A DNA stretch of 32,000 nt, taken from NCBI RefSeq assembly GCF_020885515.1, contig NZ_AP024987.1, positions 150,001-182,000 of the forward strand, written 5' to 3'. The DNA is from a cyanobacterium endosymbiont of Braarudosphaera bigelowii (GTDB lineage Bacteria; Cyanobacteriota; Cyanobacteriia; Cyanobacteriales; Microcystaceae). Under the pieces are notes generated by a model. That model did not search any database. It saw only the letters and a program-made list of their open reading frames with translations, and was not told where the DNA came from. The translations under genes and the position numbers were made by a program. This document shows, in pieces, positions 3,492-26,107 of this stretch. Every line of letters begins with the position of its first letter. The stretch's first letter is position 1.

Positions 3492-5930
3492 TTAAAGATT
3501 AACTGTAGTTTTAAACTGTCCAAAGATTTTGCAGAATTCATCATAACTTAATTCATGATCACCACTAGTATCTGCTATCTTAAGCATTTGCTCAATTTGA
3601 CTATCTGATAGACCTGTATCAACATCTCTTAAGCATAATCTTAATTCTTCGAGACTGATATTTCCTGATCCATCCATATCGAAGAAACGAAAACGTTGCA
3701 ACATTGCTTCTTCTTGTGTGTTGGTTAAACTGCAATGCATAAGACTAGTAAATTCAGAAAAAGTCAGATCTTCACTACCACGACGACCAGTCATCATGTC
3801 CATGACTTCTTGAAGTCTTTCAGAAGAATAAGAACGACCTACTGCTCTTAATAAGGCATGTAATTCAGCCATTGATAGGGTGTTATTCCCATCTTTGTCA
3901 AATTTTTTGAATGCTTGTTGATAGAATACCATTTGTGTTTCATCAATTGGACCAACATTACAGGCTACTCCCTCTTTCCCTTGTGCAATAGCATCTATAT
4001 GCTCAATTGCGCTAAGAGTATATGCCATAGTTTTCCATAAATGATGAGGATTTGAATTAGTTAAAATATCTTGTTCTTCCTCAGGTGTGATGGAATATTC
4101 TTCCCGTATGTCTTCAACCATTTTCAACTCTTTGGCTGACAGTTTCGAAAGAACATCATTAAATGATTCAAATCCCTTTTTACCAATCATGATGTCATAA
4201 AGACTTAAAATAATTGCCTGATGAGGATGATCTTTAGAAGCTTCAACAATAGTGTCGAAAAGTGATTGACGATAACTTTCTTGTCTCAACCAATCTTCAC
4301 GATTTTTATCATCTCGTACTTCATGAATACTAGGATTCTCAACTTCAATTTCTGTTAACACTAAATCATGTTCCTTATCAGAAATATTAAGCTCTAGTCG
4401 AACCTGTTCAAACATTCCAAGGCTTGTTGCAGCATTAACATAACCTTCAGCTAATGTTTCTCTAACGATTCCTTTATAGGCTTGTAATCTCTTTTCTTTA
4501 TCAAATCCAGGAAGTATTTTAGCAAGAACATACACCTCATCAGCATGAAGATCGTCTAGTGATCTTCCTTCTAAGAATTGAGAAACATCAAGTTTTAATC
4601 TTCCTAATTGTTTACGAAGACGACCAGCTAAGCTTTCTCTTTGATATAGGTATGGGTTTCTAGGCCAGGTTCTGTATAGCCATAAAGAACTAACAATTGC
4701 CATTACTACAGGAAAAAGATATTCTAGTGATGCAGGCAATAGTCGAACTGCAGTACGACCACCAAAAACAAAGAAGAAGTTGTAAATTATAAATGTTCCT
4801 AATGCAAACATTCTGTGACGAACAATTTCATTATTGACCAACTTATGATGACGGAATAGATATGCTTTATAACGCTTCTCAATAAAACGTCCTAATAAAT
4901 AAGCTACTAAGCCAAATGCTGCAATAACTAGAGGGGCAGCAACTAATTTAGGGATGGGAATAGGAGTATTGAAAATATATAAACCAGGTCTAAATAAATC
5001 AGCTACCTGATCTTCATGAGTGTAAACACCAGCGAAATAATATTCCCAGTTACCTGCAAAAAGATAAAAATAAACAAAGAAACCGACAGTTAAACCAAAA
5101 TACCCATAATGGAGCCATTGTTGTTCAGGTTTTGTTATATTTTCCCAATATGTACGTTCTGCATCAATATCTATACAAGGAGTTTTACAAGCTACACAAG
5201 AACTAGTTTCTATACCCTCTGAATTAGTAGTACGACACATAGATTGTGTAACTAATTTTCGTTCTCCTTCGCCTTGATGAGCAGTACTATTAAGAAGTCC
5301 TCTAGGTTCTGCAAAAATTTTCTGTACAGGAGACATAGGACAAAAATACTGACACCAAGATTTTCCTCCAAATAAGAATCCTACTGATATTGCAGATAAA
5401 ATAGTTGCTACTAGGAAAAGTCCTAAGAGAAGACGATCTGAATTAACAAATAAAATACGGAGAGTAATTCCTATATAAAATAATACTAATTGCAGATATA
5501 AGTGATTACGACCTAACCAAGAGTTTTTATCAACTCTAGCTACTTCAACACGAGTCTTTCCTGTTATAACATCTACTCTTCTACGATGTCTTTGCCATCC
5601 TAAAGCACGAGGAATTTGAGATAGAAAAGACAAGGGGCAAATTCTTCTCCACAATTCATGACCACCTACCAATAAGGCCACTATACCTGTTGGAACAATC
5701 CAGCCCCAAAACAGGGCAGCTCCCATTGCATAAGGTTCTTCTTCTATGCAGTTTCCTTGAAGTTTTACACATACTGTATAGTCAAGAGCAAAAGGACTCC
5801 ATGTATTTTCTGGCTGTGTAAACCAAGGGGAAACTGGGTCCCAAAATAAGGAAAGAATGAGAACTAGCCAGCCAATAGCTAATACCCATCGCACATAGTG
5901 CATTTGTCGTTCAGGAATTCTCGCAAACAT
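3492..5930 (-). CDS. Polytopic membrane protein with NapH/FixG-like Cys motifs fused to four C-terminal EF-hand Ca2+-binding motifs
   Basis: 812 aa. The N-terminal ~440 aa has multiple TM helices with 'RRICPLSF', 'SWCQYFCPMSP' (CxxxCP) and 'C-x13-CVACKTPC'. The last 146 aa carry EF loops 'DKDGNNTLSMAE', a degenerate 'GRRGSEDLTFSE', 'DMDGSGNISLEE' and 'DTSGDHELSYDE'. Confidence 0.8.
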   Translation of the reverse strand: MFARIPERQMHYVRWVLAIGWLVLILSLFWDPVSPWFTQPENTWSPFALDYTVCVKLQGNCIEEEPYAMGAALFWGWIVPTGIVALLVGGHELWRRICPLSFLSQIPRALGWQRHRRRVDVITGKTRVEVARVDKNSWLGRNHLYLQLVLFYIGITLRILFVNSDRLLLGLFLVATILSAISVGFLFGGKSWCQYFCPMSPVQKIFAEPRGLLNSTAHQGEGERKLVTQSMCRTTNSEGIETSSCVACKTPCIDIDAERTYWENITKPEQQWLHYGYFGLTVGFFVYFYLFAGNWEYYFAGVYTHEDQVADLFRPGLYIFNTPIPIPKLVAAPLVIAAFGLVAYLLGRFIEKRYKAYLFRHHKLVNNEIVRHRMFALGTFIIYNFFFVFGGRTAVRLLPASLEYLFPVVMAIVSSLWLYRTWPRNPYLYQRESLAGRLRKQLGRLKLDVSQFLEGRSLDDLHADEVYVLAKILPGFDKEKRLQAYKGIVRETLAEGYVNAATSLGMFEQVRLELNISDKEHDLVLTEIEVENPSIHEVRDDKNREDWLRQESYRQSLFDTIVEASKDHPHQAIILSLYDIMIGKKGFESFNDVLSKLSAKELKMVEDIREEYSITPEEEQDILTNSNPHHLWKTMAYTLSAIEHIDAIAQGKEGVACNVGPIDETQMVFYQQAFKKFDKDGNNTLSMAELHALLRAVGRSYSSERLQEVMDMMTGRRGSEDLTFSEFTSLMHCSLTNTQEEAMLQRFRFFDMDGSGNISLEELRLCLRDVDTGLSDSQIEQMLKIADTSGDHELSYDEFCKIFGQFKTTVNL

Positions 5931-13505: not shown

Positions 13506-14636
13506 ATGGTCAATGAAAATATAGACTATTCTGATCATCCTCTAGCAGAATATATTTATCGTTTAGAAAATAACGATACTCTCCTTAACGATTCACCATT
13601 GAATGTTATTGAAGTTGTGGGAATACTAAAAAGTTACGGAATTATCCTAGACTCGTATTCTCGAAATTTAAACTATATTGCACATCATGAGTTTTTAAAT
13701 TTTTTTCCACTCTTTAAATATTTTAATGGGGAAATATCTATTAAAAAAATATTTAGACATTTAAAGCATCAGCGCATTAATTACGAATATGCAGAGTACT
13801 GCGTAAGAACTATGATGTGGCATGGTGGTGGGAATTTAGAAACTTATTTAGATGGTGAAGAGTTTACAAAAAATATAAATAATTTAATCTCAACTAAATT
13901 TAAATATAATTTATTAATTAAAATTGTTCATAAAATTTTTCCTGAATTTTTAATGGAACAAATGAGAATGATGGCCTATTACAGATGTTTAGGCCAATTC
14001 TGGAAAGAAATGTCTCACATTTTTTCATGTCTTTCAGACCGTTATGATAAATGTGAAATCCAAACTATTCCTGATATTGTTGAACATATTCTAGATAGTC
14101 TAAAGAAAAAAGCACATGAATCTATTTTTTATGAAGTTGAAGAAAGAAAACAAAAGTTCAAAATCATACCCAAGCTAGTACGTTTGGAATTGTTTCAGGA
14201 TGTTGTTATTCCTTATGCAGAATCTATTTTCTTTCGAGGAACACCATTTCCAGGTATTGTTTCTTATAATGCTCAAGAATATCAAATTCCTTCAGATAAA
14301 TCTTCTTTTACATATGGAATATTATATGCAGATCCTCTTCCAACAGGTGGAGCAGGAATTCCTCCAACTTTATTGATGAAAGATATTAGTTATTATATTC
14401 CCGAATATCTCCATAGCATCTATGCTCAAACTATTCGCCAAGAGGATGATCTGTTAGTACAAATCTGTAAAAGTTTTCAAAAATCTATGTTTTGTGTAAC
14501 GACAGCCGCAATTAAGGGCTTGGCACCGTATTCGTTGAATACAACTAATTTTGAAGAAAAGAAACAAAATCGAATTCACCTAAAAAAATGGATGAATCGT
14601 TTTCAATATTCACAGATTTCAATTATTAATGATTAG
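13506..14636 (+). CDS. cupB: CO2 hydration protein of NDH-1 CO2-uptake complexes (ChpX/CupB-type by length)
   Basis: 376 aa. 'HPLAEYIYRLE...VIEVVGILKSYGIILDSYSRNL...FFPLFKYFNGEIS...INYEYAEYCVRTMMWHGGG' matches the ChpX/ChpY (CupA/CupB) family as I remember it. Confidence 0.8.
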   Translation: MVNENIDYSDHPLAEYIYRLENNDTLLNDSPLNVIEVVGILKSYGIILDSYSRNLNYIAHHEFLNFFPLFKYFNGEISIKKIFRHLKHQRINYEYAEYCVRTMMWHGGGNLETYLDGEEFTKNINNLISTKFKYNLLIKIVHKIFPEFLMEQMRMMAYYRCLGQFWKEMSHIFSCLSDRYDKCEIQTIPDIVEHILDSLKKKAHESIFYEVEERKQKFKIIPKLVRLELFQDVVIPYAESIFFRGTPFPGIVSYNAQEYQIPSDKSSFTYGILYADPLPTGGAGIPPTLLMKDISYYIPEYLHSIYAQTIRQEDDLLVQICKSFQKSMFCVTTAAIKGLAPYSLNTTNFEEKKQNRIHLKKWMNRFQYSQISIIND

Positions 14637-14804
14637 TAAAATGATTATTTCATATTTATTTTAAAAAACAAGATGATTTTGATTATATTTTTACGTATTC
14701 AATCAAAAACTTCACATTTTAATAAAAATAATTAAAATTAAGGCTTTATTATTTGAAGCAAAACATTTAATATAGAAAGTAGAGTTACTACAAAATTTGT
14801 CATT

Positions 14805-15059
14805 ATGAATATTGCAAATATTATCAGCGCATTTTCTTGGGATACACTTTTAGCAGCGTTAACTTATTTAACTTTGAGCATTTCATATCTTTTAATAGTG
14901 CCAGGCTTAATTTATATTTACCTTAAGAGTCGCTGGTATGTAGCAAGCTCAATTGAAAGGACCTTTATGTATTCTTTAATGTTTTTCTTTTTCCCAGGTG
15001 TACTTCTCTTAAGTCCTTTCTTAAACTTTCGTCCAAAACGTCGCCAATTAAATGTATAA
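14805..15059 (+). CDS. ndhL: NAD(P)H-quinone oxidoreductase subunit L (NdhL)
   Basis: 84 aa with two TM helices. 'YLLIVPGLIYIYLKSRWYVASSIERTFMY' matches the conserved NdhL/IctA core. Confidence 0.8.
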   Translation: MNIANIISAFSWDTLLAALTYLTLSISYLLIVPGLIYIYLKSRWYVASSIERTFMYSLMFFFFPGVLLLSPFLNFRPKRRQLNV

Positions 15060-19615: not shown

Positions 19616-22600
19616 TTACATGAAATTTAAACTTAATTGAATATAGTTAGACAACTGTCCTTTTAATTTATCTTGTAATTTAAATGAACAATATTCTTCA
19701 AACCACCATTCAGAGTTACCAGACAGTTTTTGATCTTTCAGAAGCCATTTTTCAAAGACCTGCTCTCTATTATCATTAGGAGGAACTACTTGATAAACAC
19801 GGAATCTTTTTTTACCAATTTTCTGACTTCCACAGCTATTGATACCGAAACCTATTTTGTCTAGTAATTTCCTTATAATCGTAATTGGGCTTGCATTATT
19901 TGCAATACCGATTCCTATTATAGATTTAATGTCTTGTCTATTACTTATCGCTAGATGTAACATTTTTACTAAATCAGGATCAATATTAATTATTTTTCTA
20001 TTTATATTATGCAATAAAGTATGAATCCCTAAGACTTCTAATATTCCTATAGTCGCCCCTAATTGAGAACTATTAAAATCAGGTAAAAATATACTTCCTT
20101 CACCTTTCTCTATCATTTTTTGTGCGACTTTTGCATCTCTTTCTGCTAAATGAATACGACCTTTCGTTAAAAAGTAATGAATTCTTAACTTCTGATACCA
20201 TCCATGATCATCTAACATGACTAGCTCTGGTGTAATAGGTATAGAATAAAGCAATTTCAAGTCATATTTTCGTAATCTCCTTCGTTCTACAGCAGTCTTA
20301 ACCAAAGATCTTTTTAGAATTTTATATTCTTCCTGAGTTAAGTCTTCAGCTCGACTGATATTTTCAGATTCTAGTTTATAGTTGTTTTCCCTAATTTCTT
20401 CGATAGCTTCTATTAAACTATTCTTTTTTGGAGAAGCATATAATTTATTACCTTGAGATTTTCTTTTGTGAAAATTTTTATTTTCATTAGAGAATTCGAC
20501 TTTATGATTAGCTCTTTGAATAAAACTAATTATTGTTTCTCGATATGTGATCATTTTTGCATTCATACGTACTGACATCTTTCCCCAGCATAGTAAAGAC
20601 TCTCCCTGAAAACCTATATCTAAGTCATCTAAAGACTCTAAATCAGACTGTTGCAAAAATCTAATATTTAAGTTTGTTAATCGATGACCTGAAGTGAGTA
20701 ACCCTGGGATTGATACTGAACCATTGCCTACTTTGTTGAATCCGTAAGATGCTAGCCAAAGATAACGAGGAATATTTTCCCTGACTCTGCCTAATGATTG
20801 AATAACAGATGTAGGATTTTGAATCCCTTGAGCTAGACACCAAACAGAACTAAAATGTCCCTTTATGTCAATACTAATCCCTGTCTCAAGAACAGGACTA
20901 GTAATGACAATATCATATATAGTTAATATTGAGTCTAACTGATTAATACATTCATAAGCATTATGATTTGGGTCTTTTAAAGATTCAGAATCAATACGAA
21001 GAATTTTAGTATTAGGAAATTGTTGTTGTAAGTATAATTCTAAAGTTTGTGTACCCCATTTGCTAGTTAATTTTTGGGCAGATAAGCAAATATAAGGTTT
21101 ACCTCCTTGTTGAATATGTTCCACTAAATCTTTTAAAAATTTTCTGGGAGTATTTTCTACATAGTTGTATGCTTTCCACGTACTTGAAGATTTAGGTATC
21201 CAATTATTCCTGACTATGTAAGGTTCTATCGGATATCCGGATAGGGCAATTAAATATTCTATAGAAATATTACTAAGATCTGCGTCAGCAATGAACATTC
21301 TACCTTCTCCGTTCATAACTGCCTGAACTAAACTTTTCAAGCACTTTAAAATGGAGACTCGATTACTAGAACAGGTATCAGAATTTAGACCATGCCAAAG
21401 TACTTGTTCAACCTCATCAATAATAATGAGAGCATCTTGCCAATCATGTGGATTAAAATTTGCTTGTGATTTCTCATGTAAAGAGTCAATACATAGACCA
21501 TATCCTAAGTATTCTTCAGAACTATTATCCTGATATTCCTTAATATATGAAAGTCCAAAACGTTGACATAACTGTTCAACTAATTTGATACGATGTCCAA
21601 TCACGAGAATTTTCTGTTTTTTCGTAATTGCCTTCTGAACAATTTTAGATAAAAATTTAGTTTTTCCTGTACCGATACCAGATTTAATAGCAACTAGTTT
21701 TTTTGTTTCAGGTATTGATAAATTCGGGATATAAGGAGTGTTGACTTCTAGATCAGAATCAAGTGTTAAATGATTTAATTCTCTTGCTTTCCAAGTTTCA
21801 ATAGGAAGAGCTTTCTCATAGCATTCATCAAAAGCATTATTTCCAGAATTTAATAAAAAGTCATCTACTCCTTTTCCATGTTTTGAGTCCCAGGTAGGAA
21901 TTTTAACTTGACATCCTAGAGAATTCATTAGAAATCCTAATTTTCTTATCGCTTTATTTACAGCTTTAAAAGTATTAGGTTTACTATCTTGATCAAAAGC
22001 AATATAAACACTTCTTCCTGTTGCTACTAATTTGTGTAATTGGGGAATTAAATAAGATTTTCCAATACGACGACCGATCTCATTTTTTGGTGTACGATAA
22101 CCATTATTGATACCAGGAAGAGCAATTGAAACATAGCCTGCAGTTAGTAGTGCGCCAGCTTTCTTTGCACCTTCTGTTATACAAAGCGGAATGGATTTAT
22201 TATCGATTACCCATTGCCAAAATCCAAAGTCTGACTGCGATCTATCAACTATTTCTGATTTAAATTCAATATTGTATCTGTGAGCTATCCTCCGCCATAA
22301 ATGTAATGGTACTCTTAAAGCAAAAATACCTGTTGGTGTTTTTGGGGGATGTTCATATCTGATTATTTTGTTTTCATCATAGTTAAAGCGTGGTTTATCT
22401 GGTTTAAAACACCCCCAAAGATCGTTAGTTCCTGTCATAATATCGATACCAGAACACCACCAGCCTCCTTTCTCCACGTGCTCATAACGCTTTAATATGG
22501 AATTGCTAATCCTGCCATCGTTCCTTCTCGTAAGCTCATCAGAGTATAGTAGATACTCTGATGGAGAAGTTCCTTTCAAAGTTTTTACGTTTAATTCAAT

Positions 22601-22648
22601 CAATTGCCTATCAACGCAACTGTTTAACCATTCTTGTTCATGTCCCAC
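19616..22648 (-). CDS. Toprim/DUF3854 primase-like plus P-loop helicase protein, with the architecture of cyanobacterial plasmid replication initiators (CyRepA family)
   Basis: 1010 aa with a GTG start. Toprim-like Glu in 'CITEGAKKAG' (aa ~159) and DxD in 'YIAFDQDSK' (aa ~219-221). Walker A 'SGIGTGKTK' (aa ~323-331, nt ~21656-21682). Walker B 'LIIIDEVE' (aa ~407-414). A long C-terminal region follows with no motif I recognise. Confidence 0.75.
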   Translation of the reverse strand: MGHEQEWLNSCVDRQLIELNVKTLKGTSPSEYLLYSDELTRRNDGRISNSILKRYEHVEKGGWWCSGIDIMTGTNDLWGCFKPDKPRFNYDENKIIRYEHPPKTPTGIFALRVPLHLWRRIAHRYNIEFKSEIVDRSQSDFGFWQWVIDNKSIPLCITEGAKKAGALLTAGYVSIALPGINNGYRTPKNEIGRRIGKSYLIPQLHKLVATGRSVYIAFDQDSKPNTFKAVNKAIRKLGFLMNSLGCQVKIPTWDSKHGKGVDDFLLNSGNNAFDECYEKALPIETWKARELNHLTLDSDLEVNTPYIPNLSIPETKKLVAIKSGIGTGKTKFLSKIVQKAITKKQKILVIGHRIKLVEQLCQRFGLSYIKEYQDNSSEEYLGYGLCIDSLHEKSQANFNPHDWQDALIIIDEVEQVLWHGLNSDTCSSNRVSILKCLKSLVQAVMNGEGRMFIADADLSNISIEYLIALSGYPIEPYIVRNNWIPKSSSTWKAYNYVENTPRKFLKDLVEHIQQGGKPYICLSAQKLTSKWGTQTLELYLQQQFPNTKILRIDSESLKDPNHNAYECINQLDSILTIYDIVITSPVLETGISIDIKGHFSSVWCLAQGIQNPTSVIQSLGRVRENIPRYLWLASYGFNKVGNGSVSIPGLLTSGHRLTNLNIRFLQQSDLESLDDLDIGFQGESLLCWGKMSVRMNAKMITYRETIISFIQRANHKVEFSNENKNFHKRKSQGNKLYASPKKNSLIEAIEEIRENNYKLESENISRAEDLTQEEYKILKRSLVKTAVERRRLRKYDLKLLYSIPITPELVMLDDHGWYQKLRIHYFLTKGRIHLAERDAKVAQKMIEKGEGSIFLPDFNSSQLGATIGILEVLGIHTLLHNINRKIINIDPDLVKMLHLAISNRQDIKSIIGIGIANNASPITIIRKLLDKIGFGINSCGSQKIGKKRFRVYQVVPPNDNREQVFEKWLLKDQKLSGNSEWWFEEYCSFKLQDKLKGQLSNYIQLSLNFM

Positions 22649-22769: not shown

Positions 22770-22808
22770 AATATCTCAACGATAAGTTTAACTTATCGTT
22801 GAGATATT
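22770..22808. repeat. 17-bp perfect palindromic hairpin in the divergent spacer upstream of the Rep-like gene
   Basis: AATATCTCAACGATAAG (22770-22786), centre TTTAA, CTTATCGTTGAGATATT (22792-22808). It lies about 120 nt upstream of the GTG at 22648. Both flanking genes transcribe away from it. Confidence 0.6.
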
Positions 22809-23140
22809 ATTTCTGAATCATAAAAATTCAAGGCGAACTGGTAAATATATAAATATAGTTTTTTATCCAGATTCTCCTAAAGGTTAGGATAGGATTACTA
22901 TCCAATAACTCATGCAGAAAAATATTAGAGTTAACATATTCATAATTTGGAGTTAAGATGCATAATGTATTTTTTGAATTGTTTAACTTTTTCTTGAAAA
23001 TACATAGTCGTGCTATCTTAAAGTTATTTATCTAGTAATAAAACTTTAATAATAAAGAGCAACATTTCCTCTAGGATCAATGGCAGCATTTTCATAAAAT
23101 TTTAAAAAATCTCTAAACAATTGATTTTAGAAAAAAATCT

Positions 23141-23266
23141 ATGATTATAGTCATGAAAGGTAACTCTCCAATTAATGAAACTGAACGTGTTAGTACAGAA
23201 ATTGAAAATTGGGGATTAACTCCTAAAAAAATATTGGTAAACACAAAGCTATTATTGAGTCAATAG
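23141..23266 (+). pseudogene. Detached N-terminal ferredoxin-like/ACT-like regulatory domain fragment of DAHP synthase (frame 2, stops at 23264-23266)
   Basis: ATG at 23141 encodes 'MIIVMKGNSPINETERVSTEIENWGLTPKK', which is the typical start of cyanobacterial type I-beta DAHP synthases. After the A7 run (23225-23231) this frame gives 'ILVNTKLLLSQ*'. The homologous sequence continues in frame 1. Confidence 0.7.
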
Positions 23267-23328
23267 GAGAAATTGTTTCTCCTATTGACTCAATAAGTAA
23301 AGAAATTAACCCATGGATTGAAAGTGTT

Positions 23329-24177
23329 TTGTTAGTAGAACATCCTTTTAAGCGCGCAAGTCTAGAATATGTCGGCGGAAAATATAGTGAAGTTATTATC
23401 AGCACTCCTAATGGAATTGTGCCAATTGGTAGAAATCATCCTATAGTAGTTGTAGCTGGTCCCTGTTCGGTCGAGAGTAAAACTATGATTGTTGAGACTG
23501 CTCAGCAAGTCAAAGCGTCAGGAGCTAAGTTTTTAAGAGGTGGTGCTTACAAACCTCGTACTTCTCCATATGCCTTCCAAGGTTATGGAGAAAGTGCTCT
23601 AGAGTTATTATCTATTGCTAAGGAAGAAACTGGCCTGGGTATCATAACAGAAGTTATGGATGCTAGTGATTTGGATAAGATTAAAGAAGTCGCTGATGTT
23701 ATTCAAGTAGGAGCTAGAAATATGCAAAATTTTTCTTTACTTAAGAAAGTTGGCTCTCAAGAAAAGCCTATTCTTCTTAAACGAGGAATAGCGGCTACTA
23801 TTAATGAATGGTTAATGGCTGCTGAATATATATTGGCTGCCGGAAATCCAAATGTTATTCTCTGTGAGAGAGGAATTAGAACTTTTGACACTAAATATAC
23901 TCGTAATACTTTAGATTTATCTGTAATACCGGTTTTACGCTCTCTAACTCATTTGCCAATCATGGTTGATCCTAGTCATGGTACTGGAAGAGCAGACTAT
24001 GTTCCTTCTATGGCTGCAGCAGCAGTAGTAGCAGGTACAGATTCACTGATGATTGAAGTACATCCGAATCCTGCAAAGGCACTATCAGACGGAATTCAAT
24101 CATTAACTCCAGTAAAATTTGATAATCTTATGCATAAGATATTAATTATTTCTCAAACAGTTCATAGATTAGTATGA
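23329..24177 (+). CDS. aroF: 3-deoxy-7-phosphoheptulonate (DAHP) synthase, type I-beta catalytic barrel (ORF-track start is TTG)
   Basis: 'VVAGPCSVES', 'GAKFLRGGAYKPRTSPY.FQG', 'GARNMQNF', 'KRG' and 'DPSHGTG' are conserved blocks of the DAHPS/KDO8PS I-beta family. The same frame stays open and homologous back to 23227. Confidence 0.88.
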   Translation: MLVEHPFKRASLEYVGGKYSEVIISTPNGIVPIGRNHPIVVVAGPCSVESKTMIVETAQQVKASGAKFLRGGAYKPRTSPYAFQGYGESALELLSIAKEETGLGIITEVMDASDLDKIKEVADVIQVGARNMQNFSLLKKVGSQEKPILLKRGIAATINEWLMAAEYILAAGNPNVILCERGIRTFDTKYTRNTLDLSVIPVLRSLTHLPIMVDPSHGTGRADYVPSMAAAAVVAGTDSLMIEVHPNPAKALSDGIQSLTPVKFDNLMHKILIISQTVHRLV

Positions 24178-25073: not shown

Positions 25074-26107
25074 CTGGTATTGTAATTAAAATTATAAGAT
25101 GTTTAATTCTGAAAGTTTGTAAAAGAGCCGATTCATACTATGTTTTTAAGAAAATAACAAAAATTAAAAGAAATATAAAAATAGTATACGTAAGAGGCTA
25201 AAATAAATTTACTGAATGCTATAGAAGAAAGTAAGTTAAATTCTAATAATACTACTAATATTGTTCTTATCACTATCAATAAACAATTCAATATAAATCA
25301 TTAGGTTGCTGTTATCATAACACTTACTATATATTTAAGATTAAATACATAGTAAGTGTAAGCTATAGACATAGTTAAATAATATGAGAATTATTTTCTA
25401 TATCAATAATTTAAGTTTAAAATATTTATTTTAGTTAGCAAAATATTAATTAGAAACTAATATTAATACACTTAATCATTAAATTCACTGGTTAAGTGCA
25501 TTGTTCATAATAGAATAAATAATATTCTCTATGAATAAAAAACAAAATTATCATATAATTTACTCAATTAGAGTATCCTGAATTAACTATAGTTCTCAAC
25601 ACAAATTGATTAACTAATATTTGTATTTACATGAAAATATTGTTTTTCCACTTTTAAAATAACTTTATTATCATAAGAAAAGTTATTAATATATTTCTTT
25701 ATAAAACTCTTTTAAAATATTAAAAGCATAAAATAATACTTAACTTATAATATTAAACTTTATGAATAATCTACTTATCTCTAGAATGAAATTTGAACTT
25801 AATAAAAAAGAAAAGATCTTGTTTCTTTAAAGTAATTAATAATTATTTATTTGTTACCTTCTCTAAAACTATTCATATATTAAAAAAAGTATATTCTACC
25901 TAATCTGCGAATTTAAGTATGTGATTGTAGTCAAATATTATGTCTAAAATTTTAACTAATATCTATTGAAGTTATTATAGCTTATTGATTTAATTAGTAA
26001 ATGATTTAAGAGATGGGATATCATCTTTTGCACGTAATTTTATTACTATAGCTAAAATTTAACTTCTTCTTAAAAAAGTTAACAACTAAGTTAAAATCGA
26101 TATTAGC

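Follow-up and report, generated by a model that had tools for sequence, protein, structure and literature searches.

A one-base frameshift parts DAHP synthase from its regulatory domain in a UCYN-A2-type genome

DAHP synthase (DAHPS) stands at the entry of the shikimate pathway, and enzymes of type I-beta are known with and without an N-terminal regulatory domain. The Thermotoga maritima enzyme carries a ferredoxin-like (FL or FXD) domain (structures 1rzm and 3pg9) and has also been studied as an engineered truncation (3pg8). Cross et al. (JBC, 2011) are said to have found that the enzyme stays active when the FL domain is removed but no longer responds to Tyr and Phe. In T. maritima, Phe and Tyr are the classical effectors of this domain (PMC5526877). 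The enzymes of Pyrococcus furiosus (1zco) and Aeropyrum pernix (1vs1) are unadorned and show no inhibition by aromatic amino acids (Table 1 of PMC6362186). Cyanobacteria possess FXD-bearing enzymes (family NF009933; 352 aa in Crocosphaera), formerly mis-named 'carboxysome formation protein CcmA'. Here we describe a DAHPS gene in a 32-kb stretch, called the window below (positions 150,001-182,000 of NZ_AP024987.1, ~30% GC), from a genome of UCYN-A2 type (Candidatus Atelocyanobacterium thalassa, the nitroplast of Braarudosphaera bigelowii). All coordinates are window positions on the forward strand, and all features of the locus lie on that (+) strand.

Two phenomena described in insect endosymbionts also bear on this locus. 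In Buchnera and Blochmannia, poly(A) frameshifts are rescued by slippage, and the present case is alike in that an A-run frameshift interrupts a biosynthetic gene of an AT-rich endosymbiont genome. Buchnera-type pseudogene remnants persist in intergenic spacers (PMC3164680); here, too, an ex-coding segment persists as fast-evolving non-coding DNA beside a conserved gene.

A gene split by one base

A preliminary description of the window reported that a 1-base frameshift at an A-run parts a type I-beta DAHPS from the regulatory domain at its N-terminus, and our analysis upholds this. The A7 run occupies 23225-23231 as described; with the following T it forms the frameshift site (23225..23232), which has one base fewer than in all relatives. 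The open reading frame (ORF) that begins with the ATG at 23141 (23141..23266, 41 codons) was correctly recognized as the start of an FXD domain and translates as MIIVMKGNSPINETERVSTEIENWGLTPKKILVNTKLLLSQ followed by a stop. Its first 30 codons form the native N-terminal half of the domain (MIIVMKGNSPINETERVSTEIENWGLTPKK), after which come 11 out-of-frame residues and a TAG at 23264-23266. The second half of FXD lies in frame 1 (23227..23297), which is open from 23227, reads KNIGKHKAIIESIGEIVSPIDSISKEINPWIESVLLVEHPFKRAS... and leads straight into the DAHPS barrel. As also stated earlier, frame 1 contains no ATG, GTG or TTG until the TTG at 23329; from there an ORF of 282 codons extends to 24177.

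Addition of one base yields a protein of 345 aa. It covers positions 1-343 of the 352 in NCBIfam NF009933 (617 bits, cutoff 486), contains Pfam PF18152 (FXD, residues 1-66, 36 bits) as well as PF00793, and aligns end to end with T. maritima DAHPS 1rzm (residues 1-333, E=4e-85). Since these family matches span the whole frame-restored product, the pattern is not due to chance: a single gene has truly been split by a frameshift of one base. The PF18152 match appears only after the artificial addition; in the window the FXD domain is neither contiguous nor in frame with the barrel (split at 23231/23232). The 282-aa product of the downstream ORF falls in the same 90% cluster as KFF41596.1 of UCYN-A2 SIO64986. 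Public annotation leaves the split unflagged: the remnant is listed as a separate 'hypothetical protein' (ucyna2_00469, KFF41597.1; 51 aa in SIO64986, 41 aa in the window genome) and the core as an ordinary DAHPS (ucyna2_00468), which makes the split invisible to pathway reconstructions.

The lesion is real and fixed in the A2 population. The sequence CCTAAAAAAATATTGG is identical in 10/10 independent A2-type assemblies (Tara Oceans, other European Nucleotide Archive (ENA) metagenomes, a Logan assembly from the Sequence Read Archive (SRA), and NCBI JPSP01). All ten loci are colinear with the window over 3.6 kb and stand 32-40 single-nucleotide polymorphisms (SNPs) apart from it. The short frameshift-dependent ORF (41 or 51 aa) is found on 24 contigs, in six sequence variants. 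Among ~15 billion sequences searched there was no intact A2-type protein; the only full-length UCYN-A-like protein among the matches is that of UCYN-A4 (87% identical), and the 90% protein cluster of the window core has only 282-aa and 71-aa members. Joint Genome Institute (JGI) metagenomes were scanned for the A2 site with its A7, A8 or T-restored allele and gave no match at all, and a looser pattern returned a single A1-type contig, carrying the A1 lesions described below. The window holds 45 runs of at least 7 A or T bases, 31 of them inside intact ORFs (including A8, T8 and T9). Hence, there is no general homopolymer problem in the assembly and the A7 run is unremarkable.

One extra base does fuse the two frames, as first proposed, but relatives indicate that the missing base was probably not an A. 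The codon after the Lys codons is ATT (Ile) in Crocosphaera (GAG AAA ATT GTC), in UCYN-A4 (AGA AAA ATT ATT) and in an A4-related lineage, P0033 (GAG AAA ATT ATT); it is ATC, also Ile, in UCYN-A1 (AAA AAG ATC ATT), and the wider cyanobacterial consensus EKIVGKHK likewise has Ile. The window reads CCT AAA AAA A-T ATT at the same site. Loss of a T from an Ile ATT codon directly 3' of the run (restored ...PKKIIGKHK) is therefore the most parsimonious event, rather than a change from A8 to A7, and the lesion would abut the run rather than lie within it. Comparison of the run with related strains, suggested at the outset, thus gave a double answer: A7-T is invariant in the ten A2-type assemblies, and the relatives favour a T lost beside the run.

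Selected core and decaying remnant

The catalytic core (23329..24177) is under strong purifying selection. Nei-Gojobori dN/dS (the ratio of nonsynonymous to synonymous divergence) over its 282 codons is 0.078-0.102 between A2, A1, A4 and the P0033 lineage, at dS of 0.46-0.61. The product scores well above the family cutoffs as a (beta/alpha)8 barrel of type I-beta DAHPS (PF00793, 286 bits, cutoff 25.5, E=2e-85; TIGR01361, 393 bits, cutoff 268). The metal ligands C46, H217, E243 and D254, which align to T. maritima residues, are invariant in a 25-sequence alignment, as are the substrate motifs KPRTSP (K75-P80) and GARN (A129-N131). Residues 29-271 align with the truncated T. maritima chain 3pg8 (272 aa), window residue 29 corresponding to 3pg8 residue 20. 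By alignment offset the ORF starts 9 residues ahead of 3pg8, ~15 ahead of 1zco and level with 1vs1; the E-values for P. furiosus 1zco and A. pernix 1vs1 are 1e-79 and 2e-78. An AlphaFold2 model has the barrel plus an N-terminal hairpin (E22-33), with a mean pLDDT of 80, a pTM of 0.83 and low confidence only in the first residues and the loop segments 75-86 and 185-192. The predicted product is thus a barrel with an N-terminal hairpin and no regulatory domain, i.e. the unadorned I-beta architecture, its N-terminus being deduced from the ORF. Published microarray data list probes with values for ucyna2_00468 and UCYN_11210, and one DAHPS per genome (PMC10153697 supplement).

Translation of the core most likely begins at TTG 23329. 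This codon is TTG in every UCYN-A lineage (CTA in Crocosphaera), and no other canonical start would keep the metal-binding Cys46 in the product of A2, P0033 or the A1-like variant P0125. The putative product would begin (f)Met-Leu-Val-Glu-His ((f)MLVEHPFK), and peptides encoded upstream of the TTG would be EINPWIESVLLVEHPFK. Identity to UCYN-A4 in 45-nt windows is 0.62-0.74 for window starts of 23231-23268, 0.84 at 23283 and 0.98 at 23298. The jump at 23298 comes directly 3' of the end (23296) of a palindrome described below. The 31-nt block that abuts the TTG (23298..23328, 98% identity to UCYN-A4) is probably a translation-initiation region, or else is translated from a non-canonical start. 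Farther upstream, within the 492-bp spacer that separates the DUF3854 gene from the former DAHPS start, a conserved non-coding block (22965..23083, ~60-175 nt before the old ATG) is 76-93% identical to UCYN-A4 in 45-nt windows and likely represents a promoter or 5' untranslated region, if not some other element. Conservation in this block exceeds that of the remnant. Transcription of the gene thus probably still starts from the old promoter, and the remnant would form a leader of ~190 nt. A loose pattern scan for sigma-70 promoters and terminators gave consensus-level matches only, no better than shuffles. The same spacer contains a second perfect inverted repeat (22770-22808, 19-bp arms, 1 nt between them).

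The regulatory domain is no longer under purifying selection and decays neutrally. Its frame-restored sequence (63 codons) has a dN/dS of 0.91 against A4 (dN 0.23) and of 0.43-0.94 between UCYN-A sublineages, and its second half evolves like non-coding DNA. In the A2 population the 188-bp remnant (23141-23328) has 6 segregating sites (3.2%), all replacement or nonsense in the restored frame, versus 5 sites in the 849 bp of the core (0.59%; Fisher P = 0.007). SNP density in the remnant does not differ from that of flanking non-coding DNA (P = 0.42). Position 23266 is G/T polymorphic, and T, carried by 5/11 A2-type sequences including SIO64986, creates a TGA in the restored frame 12 codons past the A-run. 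Genomes with this allele therefore could not make a full-length enzyme by any slip at the run.

An inverted repeat with perfectly matched 21-bp arms and a 3-nt loop (23252..23296; arms 23252-23272 and 23276-23296) is specific to the A2 lineage and forms a predicted hairpin of -29.4 kcal/mol (z = -8.6). Its arms supplant the ancestral sequence base for base, the length remaining as in UCYN-A4, and overwrote ~7 codons (about 46-53), turning SLRPSVI-type residues into SPIDSIS. In A4 and P0033 the repeat at this site is limited to a core of 8-9 bp, and Crocosphaera lacks it. The palindrome looks like the outcome of quasi-palindrome correction by template switching in DNA that is not read as protein any more. 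We also considered a mobile repeat, of which no second copy exists within the window; base-for-base replacement relative to A4 fits templated correction better. The stop of the upstream ORF lies in the left arm in the window type and at the end of the right arm in the SIO type.

The best explanation of the remnant is that it is a pseudo-domain in decay, whose sole remaining role is that of an mRNA leader containing a short upstream ORF. A split protein, made as two polypeptides that reassemble, was rejected: only ~30 residues of the 41-aa product are native, and a start codon is lacking for the second half of the domain.

Parallel losses and competing explanations

The same domain has been lost INDEPENDENTLY elsewhere, in UCYN-A1 and in the A4-related P0033 lineage, through different lesions. 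UCYN-A1 has lost one base at one site and gained one base at each of two others, and its codons 6 and 22 read TAA; the 454 genome CP001842 and 5 other assemblies agree on all of these lesions. In P0033 there are three stop codons and two insertions, one of 6 bp and one of a single base. A1, A2 and P0033 share no lesion with one another. A scan of genome contigs found a single close relative with an intact 345-codon gene, the UCYN-A4 metagenome-assembled genome (87% aa identity); its domain is intact yet fast-evolving too. In free-living Crocosphaera the 352-aa form is intact throughout. Neighbour-joining on the core yields (A1,(A2,(A4,P0033))), with A4+P0033 in 200/200 and A2+A4+P0033 in 165/200 bootstraps. 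Given this topology and the absence of shared lesions, we conclude that the domain was eroded three times independently. The variant P0125 (5 contigs, up to 352 kb) carries an extra 1-base deletion, GTGTTTTG to GTGTTTG (L101:1460-1501, window 23322-23329), which puts the upstream TTG of A1 out of frame and leaves only the TTG common with A2, a natural test of the sufficient start codon.

Gene content offers a possible reason for these losses. A partial gene listing contains aroB, aroQ, aroE, aroK (shikimate kinase), aroC, menA and menB for UCYN-A1 and/or UCYN-A2, and no prephenate or anthranilate enzyme is among the UCYN-A entries it shows. In a genome-scale model UCYN-A has no route to phenylpyruvate and imports Phe and Tyr, or their keto-acids, as well as Trp (PMC8143392). 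The nitroplast also imports >350 host proteins (PMC12176269).

Among the explanations offered in the preliminary description, a real lesion that leaves a TTG-initiated core without its regulatory domain is the one that the data support, through purifying selection on the core, neutrality of the remnant and the coverage of 3pg8 by the product from the TTG. We consider it quite probable that a fixed deletion, a decaying FXD pseudo-domain, a selected TTG-started barrel and parallel loss of allosteric control together account for the locus. A 1-base deletion at the A7-T junction (23231/23232) has cut the FXD allosteric domain off the barrel of the single DAHPS gene. The barrel, kept by selection and made from TTG 23329, would then be a constitutively active enzyme insensitive to Phe and Tyr, by analogy with known barrel-only forms. 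The shikimate trunk may be kept for chorismate-derived cofactors such as phylloquinone, with the Phe, Tyr and Trp branches gone and the host supplying the amino acids or keto-acids. If Phe and Tyr come from the host, end-product feedback would no longer report the output of the pathway itself and would be uninformative or even harmful. The FXD domain would thus have become dispensable or a burden, because the aromatic branches were lost and the end products are host-derived. Control may have shifted to the host, given the imported host proteins.

Several observations weigh against this account or soften it. No convincing Shine-Dalgarno sequence of any strength is visible by eye before the TTG. 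The 31 nt before it (23298-23328) are as conserved as coding sequence and contain no canonical start in A2, so that translation may start earlier, at the non-canonical ATA 23293 or ATT 23305, or the block may be an initiation region. The N-terminus of the core is a prediction from sequence. The N-terminal dN/dS values come from only 57-62 codons, the tree from one gene, and the gene-content argument from a partial listing and a published model. A trace of full-length protein might still arise by slippage in the window haplotype, in which the restored frame is open. Finally, the loss could be either adaptive or merely neutral.

The alternative that survives best is a variant of the favoured explanation, in which the core is translated from ATA 23293 or ATT 23305 and keeps the strand KEINPWIESV. 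It draws on the near-identity of block 23298-23328 to A4 and on UCYN-A1, in which an upstream TTG permits translation of the segment (P0121, MIAQELNLWIESV...). However, the P0033 lineage has a TAG and a frameshift inside the 31-nt block, and the 1-base deletion of P0125 throws the block out of frame, while the core from the common TTG remains intact in both. The block therefore need not be translated, and we regard an upstream start as possible but doubtful.

Rescue of the A2 enzyme by slippage or frameshifting is unlikely. Transcriptional slippage on the A7 run would add an A in some mRNAs and restore a full-length regulated enzyme (...PKKNIGK...). Documented slippage-rescue runs have ~9 or more bases. 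The genome is AT-rich, the restored frame is open through to the barrel in the window haplotype, and RNA polymerase is known to make insertions in A or T runs, at a rate that climbs exponentially with run length (PMC5574713). A7 is a short run, and the same genome-wide study of transcription errors found no reading frame restored by such an error (PMC5574713). Moreover, 5/11 A2 sequences carry the downstream TGA, the domain is neutral and its segment scrambled over seven codons by the palindrome, the restored residue would be Asn where relatives have Ile (the lost base being probably a T), and the A1 and P0033 genes are beyond any rescue. We therefore consider the slippage rescue raised in the preliminary description distinctly unlikely.

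Slightly less credible still is that the gene is decaying as a whole, the barrel no less than the domain, and that its core ORF has just not yet been struck. A reduced genome without the aromatic amino-acid end branches, the weak TTG start and the absence of a clear ribosome-binding site would fit this view. Against it, the core shows its low dN/dS at dS ~0.5 while the adjoining 188 bp gathered many lesions, its ORF is intact in all four degraded lineage types, and the remaining shikimate-trunk genes are kept along with the men genes. We give an equally slim chance to the idea that in the window-type haplotype (no TGA, perfect hairpin) the old start, A7 run, 41-codon upstream ORF, hairpin and 31-nt block form an evolved recoding or re-initiation cassette that sets the amount of barrel-only enzyme and perhaps allows a trace of feedback-sensitive full-length enzyme. 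If true, a nascent organelle would by such a cassette have put translational control in place of allosteric control.

A programmed -1 ribosomal frameshift, in which tRNA-Lys would slip on the A-run with help from the hairpin and the full-length enzyme would be made, seems highly improbable. The shift needed is indeed -1, Lys AAA codons are slippery, a very stable hairpin follows, and a GGGGA motif stands 9 nt upstream. However, the zero frame is CCT AAA AAA ATA, and the heptamers T AAA AAA and A AAA AAT are not canonical X XXY YYZ sites. Stimulators of -1 frameshifting typically lie ~5-9 nt downstream, whereas the hairpin starts at 23252, 20 nt past the run. The GGGGA motif is ancestral Trp-Gly coding sequence, present also in Crocosphaera; half of the A2 population has a hairpin mismatch together with the TGA in the -1 frame (5/11), and the downstream domain segment is free of selection. 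A homopolymer sequencing or assembly error hiding an intact 345-codon gene, suggested by the position of the lesion next to an A7 run, a classic error site, and by the first sequencing of UCYN-A1 with 454, is refuted by the agreement of 10/10 assemblies from different samples and pipelines amid SNP diversity, by the remnant ORF on 24 contigs with no intact A2-type protein found, by the 31 other long runs of the window that sit in intact ORFs, and by the different, non-homopolymer lesions (such as stop codons) of other lineages.

Window context and comparison with known systems

DAHPS has ordinary housekeeping genes of cyanobacteria as its neighbours: Era, ChpXY, NdhL, DnaJ, asparaginase II, RsfS, a DUF3854 helicase-like protein, SppA, SepF, an ABC1 kinase, TruB and two tRNAs. 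ChpXY (13506-15059; PF10216, E=2e-171), a CO2-hydration protein of full length, is kept with NdhL, parts of an NDH-1/Chp module, although loss of carbon fixation has been reported for this organism. The DUF3854/helicase-like protein (ResIII, Herpes_ori_bp-like) is 1010 aa long (19616-22648, minus strand, GTG start), lies beside DAHPS in both A1 and A2, and is an unusually large gene to retain in a 1.5-Mb genome. An 812-aa ORF at 3492-5930 (minus strand) matches Pfam only at C-terminal EF-hand calcium-binding motifs (~residues 670-803), and its first ~660 residues have no family match. A segment of ~1 kb at 25074-26107 (~20% GC) contains a 19-bp inverted repeat (25320-25359) but no ORF of at least 80 aa, no tRNA and no Rfam match; it may be a fully eroded gene.

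UCYN-A is the best-studied bacterium becoming a nitrogen-fixing organelle, and one particular step on that path can be seen at this locus. Where the shikimate pathway begins, end-product allostery appears to have been dropped and catalysis kept at least three times in sister lineages, with A4 still intact. From this pattern, selection on self-regulation seems to be relaxed or reversed when the end products are provided by the host. The event is best read as domain-level pseudogenization of an allosteric module during organelle-like genome reduction, which turned an FXD-regulated DAHPS into a secondarily unadorned one. Events of this kind are known, as endosymbiont gene erosion and as barrel-only DAHPS; this instance and its parallelism appear undescribed in the literature searched. 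The publications searched on UCYN-A1/A2 comparative genomics, the B. bigelowii endosymbiont genome, the nitroplast diel cycle, endosymbiont genomes (BMC Genomics 2026) and protein import (a review) make no mention of DAHPS, shikimate or aromatic amino acids.

Compared with slippage rescue in Buchnera and Blochmannia, the run here is only A7, the lost base was probably the adjacent T, and second-site lesions and the neutral evolution of the part to be rescued speak against rescue. Compared with Buchnera-type remnants, one domain was pseudogenized while the rest of the gene remained selected, and this happened three times in parallel. The cyanobacterial FXD-DAHPS family NF009933 is the direct ancestor family, from which the window gene departs in lacking a contiguous domain. 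The core has the same barrel-only architecture as the P. furiosus and A. pernix enzymes, but we found no descent from an archaeal-type unadorned lineage: the nearest relatives, Crocosphaera and UCYN-A4 (75-92% identical), bear FXD, and the unadorned state is therefore secondary here. The closest parallel is the T. maritima enzyme, with which the restored protein aligns in full and whose truncation 3pg8 the core covers. That truncation was engineered, whereas the present one arose naturally by a frameshift, is known from sequence, and left the DNA of the domain in place as a decaying leader. Overall, we suggest that this gene is a natural counterpart of the feedback-insensitive DAHP synthases engineered for metabolic purposes.

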